A stretch of DNA of 64,000 bases from positions 32,001 to 96,000 of the IMG/VR virus record IMGVR_UViG_3300034073_002585; one strand, 5' to 3'. Below the pieces are notes generated by a model. It did no database searches. It saw only the letters and a list, made by a program, of their open reading frames with translations, and was not told the origin of the DNA. How positions within the stretch are numbered: position 1 is the first letter of the stretch; each line of letters begins with the position of its first letter. Position numbers and translations under genes: made by a program. The DNA is from a virus. This document shows, piece by piece, positions 47,401 through 59,456 of the stretch.

Positions 47401-47472
47401 TCCTCTCTAGCTCAATGGCAGAGCAACGAGCTGTTAACTCGTCGGTTCGTGGTTCGAATCCACGGAGGGGAG
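47401..47472 (+). tRNA. tRNA-Asn (GTT)
   Basis: Cloverleaf with acceptor TCCTCTC/GAGGGGA, anticodon arm ACGAG-CTGTTAA-CTCGT, GGTTCGAATCC; no encoded CCA. Confidence 0.93.
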
Positions 47473-47496
47473 CAATACAGGTAGAATAGAACTCCT

Positions 47497-48924
47497 ATGG
47501 GTAAAAGCATTATGGAGCAGCTCGCGCAGCTGCCAGAAGAAGAACGCAATGCGATTCTAGCGGGCATGGACCCAGAGTCTCTTGTGTGGGACTGGTCCGT
47601 CTGGGGGCGTCCAGAGCAGTTTGCACCAGAGGGTGATGACTGGAACGTCTGGCTAGTTCTCGCTGGTCGTGGTTTTGGTAAGACCCGTTTAGCTTCCGAG
47701 TGGGTACGTGAGCAAGCTAAATACACCAACGAAGGCCAACGTCGCTTTGCTCTCGTTGCTCGTACCGCAGCTGACGTACGTGACGTTATTGTTGAAGGTG
47801 AATCTGGGATTATTAATATTTCCCCTCCTTCTGAGAAACCACACTACGAGCCTTCGAAGCGTCGTCTGACTTGGCCTAACGGAAATACCGCAACACTCTT
47901 TACCGCGGATGAGCCTGACTCTCTTCGTGGTCCTCAGTTCACCCACGCCTGGGGCGATGAGATTGCAGCTTGGCGTCAGACTCCAGATGCTGCGGGTATG
48001 ACCGCCTTCGACAACCTCCGAGTTGGTACTCGTCTCGGTAGAAATCCAAAGCTTATTTGTACCACTACACCTAAGCGTGTTCCACTTCTTTACAAGCTAA
48101 TTGAAGAGTCAAGAACAGATAAGCCTGGTGGTGCTAAGGTGGTAGTTACCAGAGGTTCTACCTTGGATAACGCTGGTAACTTGTCTCAGGCATATCTGGA
48201 CACAATTACTGGCGTTTACGAGGGCACATCACTAGCTCGTCAGGAGCTTTATGGTGAAATGCTTGACGACGTTGAAGGAGCTCTTTGGAATGAAGAGATG
48301 GTTGAGAGCGCCAGAGAGATGGCTTACCCGCCTATTACTCCGCTTCGTGTTATCGGCGTGGACCCTTCGGTTGCTGAAAATCCCCGTGACGAGTGTGGAA
48401 TTGTGGTATGTGCGTCGACTGCCGACCATGACCTCTATAAGAGAAACGCTTGGGTTCTTGAGGACGCTTCAATTCATGGTTCCCCAGACACCTGGGCCCG
48501 TAGGGTTGTGGAGATGGCTCGTAAGTGGGGTTGTCCCGTTGTTGCCGAGGTTAATCAAGGAGGCGCTTTGGTTAAAAATGCCATCCTCTCGATTGACCCG
48601 ACGGTCAAAGTATTAGAAGTTCACTCCAAATACGGAAAGCAGCTACGTGCAGAGCCAGTAGTGCTTGCTTACGAACAGCAGCGTGTCCACCATGTTGGCT
48701 ACCACACAGACCTAGAGTCTCAGATGTACTCTTGGATTCCAGAAAGTGCATCTAAATCCCCAGACCGCGTCGACGCACTAGTCCACGCACTAACTGCACT
48801 GCTAATTAAGCCGCCTCCAGGATTCTCTGGCGGAAAAATACGTGCCAAGAGCTTTGCTGACCGCAAACTGGGAGTTACAAACCCAAACAACCGACCTGGT
48901 GGAAGAATTTTTAGGGTAAGATAG
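47497..48924 (+). CDS. terminase large subunit
   Basis: AGRGFGKT Walker A, AWGDE Walker B, IGVDP and SPDRVDA nuclease motifs. Confidence 0.95.
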   Translation: MGKSIMEQLAQLPEEERNAILAGMDPESLVWDWSVWGRPEQFAPEGDDWNVWLVLAGRGFGKTRLASEWVREQAKYTNEGQRRFALVARTAADVRDVIVEGESGIINISPPSEKPHYEPSKRRLTWPNGNTATLFTADEPDSLRGPQFTHAWGDEIAAWRQTPDAAGMTAFDNLRVGTRLGRNPKLICTTTPKRVPLLYKLIEESRTDKPGGAKVVVTRGSTLDNAGNLSQAYLDTITGVYEGTSLARQELYGEMLDDVEGALWNEEMVESAREMAYPPITPLRVIGVDPSVAENPRDECGIVVCASTADHDLYKRNAWVLEDASIHGSPDTWARRVVEMARKWGCPVVAEVNQGGALVKNAILSIDPTVKVLEVHSKYGKQLRAEPVVLAYEQQRVHHVGYHTDLESQMYSWIPESASKSPDRVDALVHALTALLIKPPPGFSGGKIRAKSFADRKLGVTNPNNRPGGRIFRVR

Positions 48925-50583: not shown

Positions 50584-52326
50584 TTGGCAATTTTTAAGAA
50601 AGATAACGCGAACAAGGGCAATGCCCGTCAAAATGTACGCGCTGCTGCTCCGAAGAACGCTACTCGTGTTGCTCCAGGTGTTTCTATCGATTCTTTTGGT
50701 GTTGTTTACGCAGAACCACAGGTATTTAACACACCTAGACCACTTACAGCTGCAGCTGCTCAGGTAAACCTACAAGACAAAGGTGAAGCAGAGCTATTTA
50801 AAGCTCGTCGCCAGTCCGCCTCTACCTCTTGGCAAAGCGAAGCCTGGGAGTACTACGACTCCATTGGCGAAATCAAGTACGCATTTAACTTAGTTGCGTC
50901 TGTTGTATCTCGTATTCGCCTCTATGCAGCTGCAATCAACAACCCAAATGAAGCTCCATCCCCCATCGACAGCGTGGAGCAGGTAGACCCTAGACTTTCA
51001 GCTGCAGCTCAGAGGGCACTTGACCGTCTAAGCTCTGCATTTGGGGGACAGGCGGGTCTTTTGAAGGATGCAGCCCTAAACCTTCAGGTTACAGGTGAGT
51101 GTTACCTGGTTCAGGTTCCAGAGCGAGTTGGCTCTGGACTACCAGAATCCTGGGACATCCGCTCTGTAGACGAACTTCAAGTTGACGCTAAGGGCAACTA
51201 CATCATTAATCCCCGCCGTGAGATTGGCGGTGGTACTGCATCTTTTATGTCTCAGGGCAATAAAGAAGCGATTGCACTACCTAGAAGCGCATTTGTTGGT
51301 CGTATCTGGCGCTCACACCCTCGCTACACCCAAGAAGCTGATTCTTCTATACGAGGACTTTTGGACCTCTGCGCTGAACTACTCTTGCTCAACCGCACAT
51401 TCCGTGCCACCGCACGCTCGCGTCTCAACGCTGGTGCCTTATACCTACCTGACGGTCTGTCGGTTGCAGCAAGTCCTGACCCTGACTATCCTTATGATGA
51501 AGACGGGGAATACAACGAGCAGTTCAACCCAGACGAAGCAGCAGACGAGTTTGAAGACCAGCTCATTGATGCAATGACCACCCCAATTAAGGACGAGGAC
51601 TCTGCTTCCGCAGTTGTTCCTCTAATTATTCGTGGTCCTGCTGAACTTGGTGACAAGATTAAGCAGTTCAAGTTCGAGCGTTCATTCGACCCAGCTCTTG
51701 CTCAGCGTGCAGACCGTGTACTAGAGCGTATCATGCAGGGCCTAGACGTCCCTAAGGACGTTGTGACGGGTCTAGCCAACGTTAAGTACTCTAACGCTCT
51801 TCAGATTGATGAAGCCCTCTACAAGGCCCACATCGAGCCTCTGATGCTACTTATCGTTGACGCACTGACTGTCATGTACTTGCGTCCATATCTAGTTGCC
51901 AACGGCTACCCCGCTGAAGAAGTAAAGAACGTCTGCATTTGGTATGACCCAAGCCTAGTTGCAACCCGCAATGACCGCGCTGCAGACGCAGACATGGGCT
52001 TCGACAAGATGGCTGTATCTTACGATGCGTGGCGTCGCGCTCATGGATTCTCCGAAGCAGATGCACCAGACCCTAAAGAATTTGCTCTTAGGTTAGTTCT
52101 AAGCAAGGGAATGGTAACGCCTGAATTGACTGAAGCTATGCTACAAGCAGTAGCGCCAGAAATCATGGGCCAAATCAGAAAACAAGCAATGGAGCAGAGC
52201 GGAGCTGGCATTCCACCAGAGGTAGACCAGCTGCTACAAAATGAAGCTCCCGTTGCCGAGCCAGAAGAACAGCCTGAAGGTGGAGACACCGATTCAGCTC
52301 CACCACTAGCGGAACCAGAGGCATAA
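50584..52326 (+). CDS. portal protein
   Basis: Position after terL, 580 aa, WQ.EAW.YYD.IGE actinophage portal-like motif. Confidence 0.8.
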   Translation: MAIFKKDNANKGNARQNVRAAAPKNATRVAPGVSIDSFGVVYAEPQVFNTPRPLTAAAAQVNLQDKGEAELFKARRQSASTSWQSEAWEYYDSIGEIKYAFNLVASVVSRIRLYAAAINNPNEAPSPIDSVEQVDPRLSAAAQRALDRLSSAFGGQAGLLKDAALNLQVTGECYLVQVPERVGSGLPESWDIRSVDELQVDAKGNYIINPRREIGGGTASFMSQGNKEAIALPRSAFVGRIWRSHPRYTQEADSSIRGLLDLCAELLLLNRTFRATARSRLNAGALYLPDGLSVAASPDPDYPYDEDGEYNEQFNPDEAADEFEDQLIDAMTTPIKDEDSASAVVPLIIRGPAELGDKIKQFKFERSFDPALAQRADRVLERIMQGLDVPKDVVTGLANVKYSNALQIDEALYKAHIEPLMLLIVDALTVMYLRPYLVANGYPAEEVKNVCIWYDPSLVATRNDRAADADMGFDKMAVSYDAWRRAHGFSEADAPDPKEFALRLVLSKGMVTPELTEAMLQAVAPEIMGQIRKQAMEQSGAGIPPEVDQLLQNEAPVAEPEEQPEGGDTDSAPPLAEPEA

Positions 52327-54072: not shown

Positions 54073-54136
54073 CTCGGTATATAACACATTAGGGTAGAAT
54101 TATAGGGAGTTTCTACCTTTATATAGAGGATATTTC

Positions 54137-56992
54137 ATGACTGAAAACCTAGCCCTACTTTCGGATGGCAATTCTTCTGCTGCTCGACGTGCTCGTGTAA
54201 AGCTTCAGCCCCGCGATAAGAAAGGTCGCTGGATTCCTACTGGCGCTTCCTTGTTCGCTATGATTCGCGGCCTCGGCGGCGAGGTAAAGAAGTATCTACT
54301 TAAAGCTATTGGTGGAACTGCAACTAAGAAGGGTGAAAAGAATTACATTAGAGCACTCCTTACTGAGGATGCTCCAGAGCTAGGTCTAAAGAAAAATACC
54401 GTCCTTGAGATTGACCCTAAAAACGGTGAACTAGACACGGGGGTTAAACTAAGTAAAGACTTCCTTCGTAGAAAAGGCATTGACCCAGACCTACAGCACA
54501 CACTACCAAAATCTTTGGCAGAGCAGCCACAGGACGTAAAAGACTTAAACCCACAAGCGGCTGATGACCTAGACATAGAGCTAGCTAATGGAGAGCTTAC
54601 TGACGAAGAAGACAAAGATTTCCGTGCAGAGCGTGATGCAGAGCCACTAGCAAAACTTCCTCCAGGAATGGAGGAGCTAGACCAGAAAGAGGTTGACGCT
54701 CTTCTTGATGGCACCACCGAAGAAGCTCCTAGCCCTTCTGCTGACACTAAAAAATCTCCTTCAGACATGACTATGGATGAACTAAAGAGGGAAATTGAAA
54801 CTCCTGTTGACCCAGCATCTCCAGGGACTTTCGAGCGCTACAACGAAGTTGCTACCGAATTTTATAAGAGAGGCGGATACTCTGTATCGCCTGGACCATC
54901 TGATAGGGCAGTGGATGAAGCTCTAGCTGAAGCTTTCTACAATGGTGAAGTTCCAAATATTGACCAGCTGGTTGATAAGGCTAAGGCTCCTGCCCCTAAG
55001 TCTACTCCTGTAACGGTAGCTAACCTAAAGCCTGGAGATATCGTAAAGGTTAAAGGCGCGGAATATCCTGTTGTGTCCACTAAGCAGCGTAATAGTGGTG
55101 GCTGGGATGTTTTCGTTGACGATAACGGAAGAAATGCCAATATCGCTGCTCTAAAAGATTCAAACGGAAATCCTCTATTCCCAAGCGGTATCCCTGGGAC
55201 CGCTACTCTAGAGAAGACTGGAACTGTCAGTAAGCCAAAGGCTCCTGACGCTACCCCCGACGTAACCCCTGACGCTACCCCGTCGGCTCCAACTAAGAAG
55301 AAAGTCTCTCCTCCTAAGCCAAAGCCTACAAAGAAGCCTCCTAAAGCTTCTACCCCGAAGAAACCGCCTGTTATTCCTCAGGGGCGCGAGGATGATGGAG
55401 AAGATATTTCTCCAAACATCAAACCTCTAGAAGACATGCAAAATGTTAAGGTTGCCAATCTAATTGACCCTAACACTGGAAAGCCAGTTAAGGGGGACAA
55501 TGGAAAGCCTATTGAAGACCCTAATGCTATTTACAATGCCCTACTAGAGCAGAACCCTCAAGCAAAGGTCAGCAAGAGCGGGCACATAATTTTAGAGCGT
55601 CAAGACTTTACTGACAATGACGGTAGGGTTTGGAAGTATGAAGTTGCAGTAGCAAGAACCCATGGAAATAAGTACATGGAGAGGTATACCTTCACCGACG
55701 ATAAAGGTGAAAGCAAGACTTTCTACCACTACGACTACAAAGACTCCTTTGCTGCTATTTATGGCGACAAGAATGGTGTTTATGTTTTCCGTGACCAACT
55801 ACTTGGTAGGGCTATTCCTGGAAAGCAGCCACCTACTAGAAATACTCTGAACTACTTTGGAGAAAAGAAGACACTAAACGACAGAATTAGGTTCTTCAGG
55901 GGGATGACAAAAGAGGGCTTCAAGCCTACCCCCGACGACTTGGCAACAAAGAGTTCGTTTAAACTACTTACTCCCGAAGAAGTAGTATCTAAGTGGCTAA
56001 ACGGGCGCGCCGAGAAATATAACAAGTCTGGCCAAGCTAGGGGTACGGTTCTACAGAACTTTGTTGGCTCAGCATGGGAAGCCATCGAAGCAGATGACCT
56101 TCCTACGTTTGAAGCTAGAATCCAGCAACTACTGGGACGCCTACCAGACGATGAGTCTTCTCGTGAACTTTTGATGAAGGCTCTTCGTGACGGTATCAAA
56201 GAAAAATTCAATGGAACTCCTTTGGGTAGAAAAGTTGCTCCTCTGGCAAACAACCTTGAGAAGAAAATTCTTACCGAAGGCCTCGACATTAGAGACCTAC
56301 AGCGCCGACCATTCTCCGCAAAAGATGGCAAGACTATCGTGGAAAAGGGAAATAAGGTTCGCTACTGGAACAACGTCGGCGAGTGGTCTATTGGTGAAGT
56401 CCTTGCTCAGTTGCCACCAAGAACTAGCACTGGAGGCAAGAATACCTACGATGACGTAGTGGCAGTAAGATTCGGTGATGGAAGCATCCACCTACTGCGT
56501 TCAAACAGAATGGATGTACTTGGTGATGAGCTTGATTTTGACCTGAATCTCCACGACAAAGACTCTGATGCCACAGATTTCAAGCCAAACCTAAAGGGAC
56601 AAGCACTTAGAGATGCCAGAGGTTATGGTTTTGATTTTGGCGAAGAGGAGCGTAGGGACGACGACAATGCAGATGCAGACACAGACGATGTCGTTAACAC
56701 CGCAGACACGGACGCGGCTGCTCCTTACCTAGGCTCAGACGGAGTCGATGCCGACGAACCAGCTGCTGACGATACTGAGGATGCAACTGCCCCAGAAGGA
56801 AACATTGCTGGCTTCGAGGCAGGAGACGTCTGGCCAGACGAGAACGGTGACCGTATGGGAACCTTCGTTGAAGCACAGAAGGTGTCAGACCCAGAGACTG
56901 GTGCCGAAGCATGGGCGGTTATTTGGTTGGACGATGATGGCGACGAGCAATTAGAGATTATTCCTCTAGATTCGAGCCGCGTCCCAAAATAG
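54137..56992 (+). CDS. large head-associated protein, short form (951 aa)
   Basis: Between portal and protease; N-terminal QPRDKKGRW motif; ends at slippery CCCAAAA-TAG. Confidence 0.8.
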   Translation: MTENLALLSDGNSSAARRARVKLQPRDKKGRWIPTGASLFAMIRGLGGEVKKYLLKAIGGTATKKGEKNYIRALLTEDAPELGLKKNTVLEIDPKNGELDTGVKLSKDFLRRKGIDPDLQHTLPKSLAEQPQDVKDLNPQAADDLDIELANGELTDEEDKDFRAERDAEPLAKLPPGMEELDQKEVDALLDGTTEEAPSPSADTKKSPSDMTMDELKREIETPVDPASPGTFERYNEVATEFYKRGGYSVSPGPSDRAVDEALAEAFYNGEVPNIDQLVDKAKAPAPKSTPVTVANLKPGDIVKVKGAEYPVVSTKQRNSGGWDVFVDDNGRNANIAALKDSNGNPLFPSGIPGTATLEKTGTVSKPKAPDATPDVTPDATPSAPTKKKVSPPKPKPTKKPPKASTPKKPPVIPQGREDDGEDISPNIKPLEDMQNVKVANLIDPNTGKPVKGDNGKPIEDPNAIYNALLEQNPQAKVSKSGHIILERQDFTDNDGRVWKYEVAVARTHGNKYMERYTFTDDKGESKTFYHYDYKDSFAAIYGDKNGVYVFRDQLLGRAIPGKQPPTRNTLNYFGEKKTLNDRIRFFRGMTKEGFKPTPDDLATKSSFKLLTPEEVVSKWLNGRAEKYNKSGQARGTVLQNFVGSAWEAIEADDLPTFEARIQQLLGRLPDDESSRELLMKALRDGIKEKFNGTPLGRKVAPLANNLEKKILTEGLDIRDLQRRPFSAKDGKTIVEKGNKVRYWNNVGEWSIGEVLAQLPPRTSTGGKNTYDDVVAVRFGDGSIHLLRSNRMDVLGDELDFDLNLHDKDSDATDFKPNLKGQALRDARGYGFDFGEEERRDDDNADADTDDVVNTADTDAAAPYLGSDGVDADEPAADDTEDATAPEGNIAGFEAGDVWPDENGDRMGTFVEAQKVSDPETGAEAWAVIWLDDDGDEQLEIIPLDSSRVPK

Positions 56993-59154
56993 ATAGGGCT
57001 GCTTCTGGCCCTTCTGACGAGGGTTCGGATTCAGCCCCTAAGCCAAAAGTAGCTAAAAGCTTAGCTGGTAATAACTTTGACCTATCGAAGGTTCGCACCC
57101 TAAATAAGTCAGCTAAGCCTGGTCCAGGTAGACCCAGAACTCGTCCGATTGACCCCAATTGGAATGACCTTAAGGCTATAGAGAGTGAAATTTTCGCTAC
57201 TATACCTGCAGACGTAGACCTAGACGAGTTAAACGATAAAATTTCAGCTGTTCGAGAGGCCAGGGCCTCTGACGATGCTAAGCAATATGCAGCCGCATTG
57301 AGAGATTTAATTGTTTTCCACCAAGACAGTTTTAAAGCTGACGAGTCCTACTCCCCTAGAGACCTAGATGCTGCTGTAAAAGCTGACGAACTGCTTTCCT
57401 CTGACCCTAGGGCCATAGCTGTAGTTAGAGGTGTCTTACACGTAGGAGCTAGGGACGGTAAATCGCCTAAAACCCTAACACAGCTGCTGGATGACGCTAA
57501 GCAGAATTTTAAAGACAATAGAGCAGATGTTAGACCGCATCTTGCAGCTTTAGGTGGCGACTGGGAGACAAAGGGTGCCATCCAACTTGCTGATGACATG
57601 CAGGTCGAATTTGAGGCCGAGTTTATCAGGCAAGGCGCTCACCCTGGCGAAGCGGTGTTTAGGGCGAAACGTAGGGTAGCTCAAGTCTTAAATGACATGG
57701 CAACAGACCACAAGAAGTCCTACATAGTTTTGACATCTAAACAAGATAATGCATCCATAAAACTATTCATGGGCTCCAAGTCAGGAACGATGGTACCTGT
57801 AGCTGCTCCCGATGAGGTTGCCCAGATTCGTGTTGGTATAACTGCTGCAAGAGCTAACAAGTTCAATAAAGACCCTATAAATGTAAATGTTATGGCTAAT
57901 GACAGCACTTCAGCTATGCCTACAGCTGTCTCGTCTCAGCTGGATGATGGTGATTTGGCCTTCACATACTTTGGCGGGGATGGAGTATTTATCTACCCTC
58001 AAAGGGTAAGCAAGATGTTGGCAGATGGAGTCGACTCTAACTGGTTCTCTACCAATATTAAAGACTCTAAAGACCTATACAAGCACCTAATTGTTCATGA
58101 AACTGGTCACCTACAGATGTATAAACTGTGGGGACAAGGTAAAGGTTCTGGTAGAGCAGAGCTAGAGAAAGATTTCACTAACTTTAACGTTTCTAAAGAT
58201 GGAACTAGTGACTATGGTAGCGAGAGTATTTCTGAAAGTTTTGCCGAACAGTACGCTAAGTATTTGTTGACTGGAAATGCTTCGCAAGAATTTATAGACC
58301 TGCTTAGCTCTAAGGGCTTAACTAAGGCTCAGCTAAATAAAAAGTGGCGAGAAAACCACAAGAGTCTATTTAGCTCTGGATATGATATCTTCTTCAAATT
58401 CCTCGATGGTGTTATGGTTGATGACCAGCAGGGAGTTACTCCAGAGTACAATGGACCAGAAGCTAGGGAGTACTCAGATGGCGGAAAATACGGCGCTGGC
58501 ATCGTCCACAGACTCGGTCGTATATTAGGATTTACTAGCAATAAGCCTGACAAAGTTGACTCTATAAAAAATGATAAATATGTCATTTATAGGGGCCTAC
58601 AATCTGCTAACAATAGAACTCCTATTGATATGCATGCTCAGTTTATGTATGCTGATATGCCATACTATGGATACGGCATCCACGGGGATGGCCAGTACTC
58701 AAGTACTAATCGTCGTACTGCTCGCGGTTATGCAGGATATACAGACGACGGGGTAGTAAAAATGCGAGTCAAGCCCACTGCAAAAGTCTATTCAGAAGGT
58801 GGCCGAGGCTCTGACAATCTGTTTGACCCTGCTGTATCTAATGATGGTATCGATATTAGGGACGTCTACGCTAAGCTCTTTGACTCAGATGGAATTTTGG
58901 CTCAAATAGTTCTCAATGAAATTGACCCTGACTTGTCTGGATACGAGTTGCAAGCTCAAATAGACCTTCTAGCTAGAAAATTAGGAATTATTAATGGCAA
59001 CTATATGGGAAGCAAGTCTCACCTAGCTGCCCTTCTAGGCTTTCAAGGTATTGAAATAAATCAAGGTGGAGAGTCTTTTGTAGTTATACTTGATAGGAGT
59101 ATGCTAGAGATGCAAGACCCGAATGCCCAGATAACGCAAGGATTAAACTCATAA
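56983..59154 (+). CDS. -1 frame extension: zincin HExxH domain plus ADP-ribosyltransferase-like domain
   Basis: Frame open from 56938 with no start codon until 57298; VHETGH...ESFAE; IYRG...GIHGDGQYSS. Confidence 0.7.
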   Translation, partial: PKIDRAASGPSDEGSDSAPKPKVAKSLAGNNFDLSKVRTLNKSAKPGPGRPRTRPIDPNWNDLKAIESEIFATIPADVDLDELNDKISAVREARASDDAKQYAAALRDLIVFHQDSFKADESYSPRDLDAAVKADELLSSDPRAIAVVRGVLHVGARDGKSPKTLTQLLDDAKQNFKDNRADVRPHLAALGGDWETKGAIQLADDMQVEFEAEFIRQGAHPGEAVFRAKRRVAQVLNDMATDHKKSYIVLTSKQDNASIKLFMGSKSGTMVPVAAPDEVAQIRVGITAARANKFNKDPINVNVMANDSTSAMPTAVSSQLDDGDLAFTYFGGDGVFIYPQRVSKMLADGVDSNWFSTNIKDSKDLYKHLIVHETGHLQMYKLWGQGKGSGRAELEKDFTNFNVSKDGTSDYGSESISESFAEQYAKYLLTGNASQEFIDLLSSKGLTKAQLNKKWRENHKSLFSSGYDIFFKFLDGVMVDDQQGVTPEYNGPEAREYSDGGKYGAGIVHRLGRILGFTSNKPDKVDSIKNDKYVIYRGLQSANNRTPIDMHAQFMYADMPYYGYGIHGDGQYSSTNRRTARGYAGYTDDGVVKMRVKPTAKVYSEGGRGSDNLFDPAVSNDGIDIRDVYAKLFDSDGILAQIVLNEIDPDLSGYELQAQIDLLARKLGIINGNYMGSKSHLAALLGFQGIEINQGGESFVVILDRSMLEMQDPNAQITQGLNS

Positions 59155-59456
59155 TGGCTGATGAAGAAAACAGAGAAATGGAAGAGAGAGCCATAGAATA
59201 CTCTCGACTATTTGCTAGAGCAATGGGGCAGGCTACAGATTCTGATTATTTCAGTAGTGACGGTAAGTCATGGGATGAAGCTGCAGATTGGATAAAAGAC
59301 AATAATTATGTGCCCAAATCTCGTGAGTTCCGAAAACTAATTATCGATGAGATTTACCAGATATTAGAGACTAAACCCCTCCCACCTAAAGAGAGCTTCT
59401 CTGGGGAGCTACAAAAGTTCTTGGATAGATATGAAGAAAGGCGTAAAAATGGATAA
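59154..59456 (+). CDS. small acidic protein (candidate immunity protein)
   Basis: TAATG-coupled to the toxin-like frame. Confidence 0.6.
   Translation: MADEENREMEERAIEYSRLFARAMGQATDSDYFSSDGKSWDEAADWIKDNNYVPKSREFRKLIIDEIYQILETKPLPPKESFSGELQKFLDRYEERRKNG

Follow-up and report, generated by a model that had tools for sequence, protein, structure and literature searches.

A programmed -1 ribosomal frameshift very probably operates in the head module of an uncultured phage, where it would attach a large enzymatic extension to a protein encoded between the portal and the major head protein genes. The locus lies within bases 32001-96000 of a 154,192-bp IMG/VR record (IMGVR_UViG_3300034073_002585), a stretch of 64,000 nucleotides (nt) hereafter called the window. 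Herein, the zero-frame open reading frame (ORF0) encodes a 951-residue protein, referred to as the carrier, which ends on a slippery heptamer. The overlapping -1 frame encodes 721 further residues, predicted to comprise a zincin metallopeptidase and a domain resembling ADP-ribosyltransferases (ARTs). Taken together, the frameshift and these domain assignments are quite likely to be correct.

Slippery site and reading frames

ORF0 closes with the in-frame heptamer C_CCA_AAA, and its stop codon follows directly (Table 1). The -1 frame stays open between 56938 and 59154. No ATG, GTG or TTG occurs in the first 103 codons of the extension; the first possible start, a TTG at 57298, is preceded by no Shine-Dalgarno-like bases. 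Slippage at the heptamer would yield a product of 951 + 721 = 1672 residues with the junction VPK-IDR. A first-pass annotation, made from the letters of this DNA alone, had described the end of ORF0, the heptamer, the two frames and the TTG, together with the protein motifs HETGH, ESFAE, IYRG and GDGQYSS, and all of them are present in the sequence as described. By itself, the motif CCCAAAATAG is not beyond chance in 64 kb, as it was seen once in the window against 0.15 expected and 14 of 100 shuffles held at least one copy. Its significance stems from its placement at the 0/-1 junction of two long ORFs and from its conservation in relatives.

Conservation of the junction among related loci

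Related loci, designated by L and P numbers (e.g. L002, P0185) and compared with the window locus, were found by searching with the carrier and the extension in IMG/VR, JGI/GenBank metagenomes, ENA and Logan assemblies. Nineteen distinct junctions were compared, with carrier protein identities of 35-55%. In 19 of 19 loci, CCCAAAA stands in frame with TAG or TAA directly after it, a -1 ORF of 492-1002 codons follows, and a stop ends the +1 frame within 1-11 codons. Conservation is 100% for the heptamer and for the TA of the stop, against 40-80% at flanking positions. The codon that supplies the first C is GTC, CTC, GGC, AGC or TCC (Val, Leu, Gly or Ser), with C as its third base in every locus; since the amino acid varies and the final C is fixed, selection acts on the nucleotide and not on the amino acid. 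Furthermore, in L028 and L006 the -1 frame opens merely 3-6 nt ahead of the heptamer, so that in these loci a shift would be possible only at the heptamer itself.

The extension has no conserved start of its own, as the first possible -1 start codon falls anywhere from codon 20 to codon 190 depending on the locus. The extension proteins of the relatives nevertheless align from residue 1, and conservation peaks in the first 90 residues, which contain no start codon (70% identical to L002, vs 52% over the full extension). In every assembly, gene callers divide the locus in two, with predicted starts that lie 57-567 nt past the stop and differ between assemblies, and representative called extension proteins begin at profile positions 22-105. 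Because the loci are split at such arbitrary internal starts, databases lack the long proteins and list the effector modules as orphan hypothetical proteins.

In the most distant relative, L025 (28% identity), the putative slip site reads A_AAA_AAA; a hairpin follows 6 nt on, and the extension is a zincin-only protein of 403 residues. Altogether, the hallmarks of a canonical -1 cassette were found at this locus, namely a slippery heptamer, a downstream structure and a long -1 ORF without a conserved start of its own. Comparison of the related loci strongly supports the programmed -1 frameshift that the first-pass annotation had proposed. It had also suggested looking for CCCAAAA and hairpin in relatives with variable downstream domains, and this pattern is borne out: CCCAAAA recurs in the 19 loci, hairpins are kept and the cargo differs in deeper relatives.

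The same phage genome carries a second, putative -1 site of the tail chaperone type just upstream of the tape-measure gene, past the end of the window (genome 103937-104010; L010:11937-12010). At this site, a 112-codon ORF ends shortly after CGC CCA AAT and is followed by a 124-codon -1 ORF, with a hairpin of -23.5 kcal/mol starting 5 nt after CCCAAAT. Given this second site, the host ribosomes would be expected to shift on sequences of this kind.

As a separate observation, in many relatives the heptamer is preceded, at a distance of 11-17 nt, by a G-rich stretch that resembles a Shine-Dalgarno sequence (GGGG, GGTGAGG; e.g. L002:8647-8653, L022:7608-7616), an arrangement known from the dnaX frameshift. 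No such G-rich stretch is present upstream of the heptamer in the window (GATTCGAG).

A covarying stem-loop downstream of the heptamer

The putative stimulatory structure in the window is a stem-loop composed of an outer stem, GGGCUG/CAGCCC, and an inner stem (Table 1). Its minimum free energy is -23.9 to -26.4 kcal/mol, with z-scores of -2.3 against dinucleotide shuffles and -4.3 against mononucleotide shuffles. Across the window and its ten closest relatives, the stem-loop measures 33-42 nt with 13-16 bp and -20 to -26 kcal/mol, and always begins 6 nt after the heptamer; the outer stem is invariant in this group and the inner-stem sequences differ. L029 and L031 also keep a long stem-loop, each with an inner stem of its own. 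In the deeper relatives (L022/L023, L024, L032-L034), the stem is shorter, at about 6 bp, consists of G+C pairs only and lies 5-6 nt after the heptamer. The whole cassette of heptamer, spacer and stem-loop spans 55 nt (56983-57037).

Covariation was evaluated on the nine gap-free 42-nt versions, in which 97% of cells are paired, compared with 19-54% when the partners are slid; three pairs are changed on both sides and none of 500 shuffles reaches the observed score, a result to be read with the caveat that the structure was derived from the same sequences. In the -1 frame, the outer stem encodes Arg-Ala and Ser-Ala-Pro with the Ala codons fixed as GCT and GCC, a choice that coding does not require. 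The hairpin region matched no family in Rfam. The first-pass annotation had pointed to a smaller, 5-bp hairpin, AGGGC-N8-GCCCT (56995-57012). It is present in the window, but it is neither the minimum-energy fold nor conserved, and a functional role for it was rejected: L007, L009 and L017-L019 lack its 3' arm yet retain the long stem-loop.

Domains of the extension

An AlphaFold2 model of the extension, built from a 50-row alignment, reached a mean predicted local distance difference test score (pLDDT) of 89.7. In this model, residues 1-54 are mostly disordered and residues 55-165 form a helical bundle, after which two confidently predicted domains follow. At the level of fold, the model-based domain assignments are solid.

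The first of the two is a zincin, as had been suspected from its motifs. In the alignment of relatives, H370, E371, H374, E416 and E420 are invariant. VIA-align placed the modelled domain closest to the catalytic domain of anthrax lethal factor (1yqy_A; Z 11.3 over 192 residues, root-mean-square deviation (rmsd) 6.0), followed by the Pro-Pro endopeptidases PPEP-3 (9g0j_A, Z 9.2) and PPEP-2 (6fpc_A, Z 8.8). The combination of HExxH with a downstream Glu ligand on a zincin fold is that of M34-type peptidases. Sequence-level and other structural matches are weaker: the Pfam family ATLF does not match the window protein and reaches 19-21 bits in relatives against a cut-off of 27.4, and Foldseek matches have expect values (E) of 0.03 or weaker. 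In the model, the domain has the fold of the anthrax lethal factor/Pro-Pro endopeptidase group (M34-like).

The second domain was named an ART/PARP-like region in the first-pass annotation, and it proved homologous to the ART-PolyVal-like domains of MuF fusions. When it was compared by hhalign with the C-terminal domain of MuF-fusion proteins, the probability was 99.8% (E 1.8e-29). Among 80 homologues of the domain, 20 carry Phage_Mu_F, two carry Phage_min_cap2 and three match ART-PolyVal (PF18760), a family model that gives no Pfam match on the window protein. Moreover, the nearest ESM Atlas clusters are ART-PolyVal (score 0.92, 175-180 shared features), and Foldseek on BFVD retrieved ART-PolyVal-like proteins from E 1.8e-4.

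Assignment to the R-S-E clade of ARTs (Alt/VIP2) was rejected: PF03496 does not match the window protein, and no E-x-E was found before the last strand. An Arg is present in the YRG of the domain, and the PF03496 matches in some homologues lie in other domains. A further structural match of the C-terminal domain, to a cyanophage A4 pre-ejectosome chain, is weak (Z 6.5, rmsd 6.0) and was not relied on.

The carrier protein

The carrier gene has AGGA 7 nt ahead of its ATG. Gene callers start the window's carrier at Met42, yet conservation begins at residue 11-24. Neither Pfam nor PHROGs returned a match for the carrier, and its 31 homologues likewise contain no Pfam domain. Its AlphaFold2 model (pLDDT 72) consists of small SH3/Tudor/KOW-like barrels, helical pieces and disordered linkers rich in Pro, Thr and Lys. 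When its fold was searched with Foldseek and VIA-align, the matches were limited to small generic barrels (EF-P domain I-like, Z 8.5; Tudor-like, Z 7.6) that point to no function, and the carrier core had no usable match in the ESM Atlas. In every relative, the gene occupies an equivalent position behind the portal, Dps-like and DUF5824-like genes.

The first-pass annotation had taken the carrier for a head-associated protein and had drawn on MuF head proteins for comparison. The head association is suggested by the conserved gene order, with the locus lying between the portal and the protease and capsid genes, and by the homologues of the C-terminal domain that are carried on MuF and minor capsid proteins; the carrier itself, however, is not MuF (PF04233). 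It has no corresponding Pfam or PHROG match, hhalign assigns a probability of 0.2%, and a jackhmmer search seeded with the MuF domain never reaches the carrier family. PF04233 gave no match across the whole genome. That the carrier is a virion or head protein is suggested by conserved gene order, by the in-frame fusions to cargo and by the link between the cargo domain and MuF in other phages.

Near its N-terminus, the carrier bears the motif QPRDxKG followed by an aromatic residue (54206-54244), which is nearly invariant in 32 homologues. The motif recurs at residue 1392 of the 1553-residue protein encoded downstream, with a non-significant BLAST score (E 2.7), and it could represent a shared assembly or processing signal. 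Literature searches on the QPRD motif and on the heptamer gave no lead.

Cargo exchange and in-frame forms

The payload of the long form had been proposed to be swappable. Among close relatives this does not hold, as all their cargo is homologous to that of the window, but it does hold for deeper relatives with the same cassette. Behind CCCAAAA, stop and hairpin, L022, L032 and L033 carry a zincin with ArdC-N and MPTase-PolyVal domains, L024 carries an RNase_T-like exonuclease with a zincin, and L034 carries a zincin only. The zincin is the constant element among the cargo, which fits the proposal that such peptidases process polyvalent proteins (PMC5512222).

In L007, L009, L029 and L031, an extra insert of about 300 residues lies between the zincin HExxH and the Glu ligand (L007:10450-11330, L009:10010-10900). 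With its Gly-rich GSNPGG, LANWD and DPGGS motifs the insert is reminiscent of a kinase-like fold, and it has no Pfam match.

In-frame forms of the family also occur. In L008 (5956-10074) and L030, the carrier without its last small domain is joined to a different HExxH module in a single ORF of 1372 residues. In P0185 and P0186, a UvrD-like helicase precedes the carrier core within a single ORF of 2454-2575 residues (hhalign probability 100%, E 1e-39); the 2575-residue form lies at L035:4902-12629. These fusion ORFs lie where the carrier gene otherwise stands, behind the portal and Dps-like genes.

Proposed mechanism and alternative explanations

In the proposed mechanism, most ribosomes would stop at TAG 56990 and release the 951-residue carrier. 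A fraction of them, holding CCA in the P site and AAA in the A site, would pause at the 16-bp stem-loop 6 nt further on, slip back by one base (CCA to CCC, AAA to AAA), read ATA GAT AGG and continue for 721 codons. The resulting long form would join the carrier to a polyvalent-type enzyme module made up of a disordered linker, a helical bundle, the zincin and the ART-PolyVal-like domain. As both isoforms would share the assembly contacts of the carrier, the long form may enter the capsid at the ratio given by the shift efficiency and may then be ejected with the DNA. The zincin would cut the polypeptide, after which the ART-like domain would modify a host target.

The likelihood of these steps is uneven. 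Packaging, injection and dosing by the shift rate are plausible, packaging being suggested by gene order and by the MuF fusions of homologues; considered alone, the packaging and injection steps appear moderately probable. In a wider reading, heptamer, stop and hairpin would form a conserved joint on which freshwater and soil actinophages hang interchangeable cargo from one internal head protein, with the copies per capsid set by recoding and not by gene dosage or assembly signals. The chances of this wider reading are evenly balanced. The interchangeable cargo considered in it comprises ART-like domains, ArdC-N with MPTase (anti-restriction type), an RNase T-like exonuclease and the kinase-like insert.

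Several points weigh against the scheme. The 1672-residue product and its abundance are predictions for an uncultured phage, and the carrier resembles no known virion protein. The window extension has no match in Pfam, in PHROGs or in a PDB sequence search. Furthermore, the active site of ART-PolyVal consists of H in strand 1, Y in strand 2 and D in strand 5 (PMC5512222). The ART-like domain lacks this published H-Y-D triad; the wider family keeps invariant R, Y and D, and the window has Q686 where the family, including L007 and L009, has D. Catalysis by the domain is uncertain on these grounds, hence the designation as only "ART-like". Finally, L025 has a TTG four codons after its slip site, and independent initiation is possible there.

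The last point belongs to the most serious rival explanation, that of two separate genes, with the downstream protein initiated at TTG 57298, at a non-canonical start or by termination-reinitiation after TAG 56990. Gene callers do split the locus in this way in every assembly, and the TTG of L025 would suit it. However, no start is conserved, none of the bases before 57298 resemble a Shine-Dalgarno sequence, and the start-less 90 residues are the best conserved part of the extension. Two genes would also leave the invariant heptamer, the forced third-position C and the covarying hairpin at a fixed 5-6 nt unexplained, and this alternative is considered improbable. Transcriptional slippage, in which RNA polymerase on the A run would yield mRNAs one base longer or shorter, would give a nearly identical protein product, and it could draw on the run of four A at the site and of seven in L025. 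Productive transcriptional slippage is seen at runs of about 8-9 or more, and four A fall far below this length. The process also requires no CCC, stop or fixed-spacing hairpin, yet all three are conserved, which makes it very unlikely.

A third rival is that one 1672-residue gene was split by an indel from sequencing or assembly, or by a recent frameshift mutation; in its favour are the error-prone nature of homopolymer runs and the in-frame fusions of the family in L008 and P0185. Against it, 19 loci diverged to 35-55% protein identity share this 0/-1 arrangement at an identical heptamer. Since these come from independent samples and assemblers (IMG/VR, ENA, Logan, GenBank metagenomes), an indel artefact is ruled out, and the probability left to this explanation as a whole is negligible. 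In view of the comparative data, a programmed -1 frameshift is the only reasonable account of the junction.

Relation to known recoding and effector systems

Capsid-gene -1 frameshifts are familiar from the major head protein of Lactobacillus phage A2 (Garcia et al. 2004, ref. 41 of PMC10885494) and from gene 10A/10B of T7. The heptamer of phage A2 is reportedly the same C_CCA_AAA with a downstream stem-loop. As in these cases, the shift at the present locus would occur at the very end of a head-module gene and give a minor, C-terminally extended form, which in A2 and T7 is built into the capsid. Their extensions, however, are short capsid pieces, whereas the locus carries a large multi-enzyme cargo on a non-capsid carrier.

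The tail assembly chaperone frameshift of the lambda gpG/gpGT type (Xu, Hendrix and Duda 2004, ref. 39 of PMC7302621) offers a second parallel. Both have a conserved X_XXY_YYZ near the end of a structural-module gene, a start-less -1 ORF and two isoforms with a common N-terminal part, made in the lambda type at a fixed ratio. The tail-type site of the window's own genome, with CCCAAAT and a hairpin, has a nearly identical heptamer. Unlike lambda G/GT, the locus lies in the head module, has a stop directly after the heptamer and a strong covarying hairpin, and encodes an enzymatic extension of 721 residues instead of a small tape-measure-binding domain.

With regard to the cargo, MuF-effector fusions are a close counterpart. 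Gp4 of Microbacterium phage Percival combines a MuF-like domain with a VIP2 ART (PMC7302621), and MuF domain fusions have been discussed more broadly (PMC5512222). The resemblance lies in a head-module protein with a C-terminal ART-type domain that is expected in the virion, and the window domain is homologous to many of these. In contrast, the MuF fusions are in frame, so every copy is armed, whereas here the domain is linked by a frameshift to a carrier that is not MuF. Among PRFect predictions, MuF-like/VIP2 gene pairs appear only as unannotated "false positives" (PMC10885494).

The domain composition also recalls the polyvalent proteins of phages and conjugative elements, for which a lethal-factor-like zincin has been proposed as processing peptidase (PMC5512222; Iyer, Burroughs, Anand, de Souza, Aravind 2017). 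Like them, the extension would unite unrelated enzyme domains, here a zincin and an ART-like domain, in one polypeptide encoded among packaging and head genes, and the cargo of the carrier family repeatedly includes ART, ArdC-N and MPTase domains. It differs in that the cargo is joined to the carrier by recoding and changes between lineages behind a conserved cassette; PMC5512222 makes no mention of frameshifting. T4 Alt, a head-packaged and injected ADP-ribosyltransferase of the R-S-E clade that modifies host proteins early (PMC5512222), provides a model for the action of a capsid-borne ART. Alt, however, is encoded by a gene of its own and reaches the head through a different form of targeting, and no sequence relationship to it was shown. 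The literature searched contained no account of a frameshift linking a head-module carrier to polyvalent cargo.

In the current view, proteins injected by phages disarm the host ahead of any phage gene expression, and the locus may bear on the more general question of how the copy number of such cargo is set. For one lineage, it suggests a simple answer, in which a recoding signal at the end of a head-module gene would give a constant share of carrier molecules a cargo, with exchange of that cargo during evolution. If the wider reading given above is correct, this would represent a general and previously undescribed way of loading sub-stoichiometric injected effectors. In addition, the compact 55-nt cassette comes with natural sequence variants, which makes its shift efficiency directly measurable.

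Genome setting and neighbouring genes

The phage is uncultured, infects actinobacteria and is siphovirus-like. The ends of the record share a 124-bp terminal repeat, which may be a mere assembly overlap. The head module spans the window region in the order terminase, portal, frameshift locus, head protein and tail genes, the latter including a tape-measure protein past the major head protein.

Table 1. Positions of the frameshift locus features and of adjacent head-module genes, numbered from the first base of the window
Feature	Position	Strand	Remarks
ORF0 (carrier)	54137-56992	+	951 aa; zero-frame product; stop TAG 56990-56992
Slippery heptamer C_CCA_AAA	56983-56989	+	In-frame X_XXY_YYZ; ORF0 end reads GTC CCA AAA TAG
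Stop TAG	56990-56992	+	First half of the 6-nt spacer 56990-56995
Putative stimulatory stem-loop	56996-57037	+	42 nt, 16 bp; 6 nt after the heptamer
-1 extension (predicted)	56989-59154	+	721 codons + stop
Zincin metallopeptidase domain (predicted)	57487-58329	+	Extension residues 167-447
HETGH	58096-58110	+	Zincin motif
ESFAE	58234-58248	+	Likely third zinc ligand
ART-PolyVal-like domain (predicted)	58471-59133	+	Extension residues 495-715
R535	58591-58593	+	ART-like domain position
Y570	58696-58698	+	ART-like domain position
Q686	59044-59046	+	ART-like domain position
100-aa ORF	59154-59456	+	Start overlaps the extension stop (TAATG)
Large terminase	47497-48924		Head module
Portal	50584-52326		Head module
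Dps/ferritin-like gene, DUF5824-like gene, 165-aa ORF			Between portal and ORF0
Three small ORFs, 1553-aa protein, major head protein			After the frameshift locus
1553-aa protein	60037-64698		Peptidase_S78 (prohead protease) match weak, sub-threshold: 18.9 bits vs cut-off 21

The PHROG matches of the 1553-residue protein are annotated as portal, head maturation protease and virion structural protein. The ORF of 100 residues that overlaps the end of the extension has a homologue after every locus with ART-like cargo and none where the cargo is different; L018 and L019 carry the homologue as a fusion to a conserved family of 68-residue ORFs. It could be a partner, chaperone or immunity factor, for which co-occurrence within one clade is weak evidence. 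Complex prediction of the C-terminal domain with this ORF yielded no answer, at a score of 0.00.

DNA and protein searches of 50,697 GenBank phage records gave no match to the locus, the extension or the carrier, and only the portal matched cultured relatives. The closest of these are Actinomycetia phage DSL-LC01 from lake water (70%) and large Microbacterium and Arthrobacter phages (46-62%), including Microbacterium phage Pumpernickel (62%). In both DSL-LC01 (L036:15339-23629) and Pumpernickel (gp82, L037:12966-19673), the slot after the portal is filled by one giant ORF, of about 3289 and 2235 residues respectively, annotated as hypothetical. Neither ORF has BLAST similarity to the carrier.

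The sole tRNA gene in the window encodes tRNA-Asn (GTT; 47401-47473). The A-site codon of the putative tail-chaperone slippery site is AAT (Asn), and the agreement between the two may be coincidence. In addition, a 7-bp inverted repeat, GGTAGAA...TTCTACC followed by TTTAT (54093-54118), lies just 5' of the ORF0 ribosome-binding site and may act as a terminator or regulatory hairpin between the 165-residue ORF and the carrier gene.

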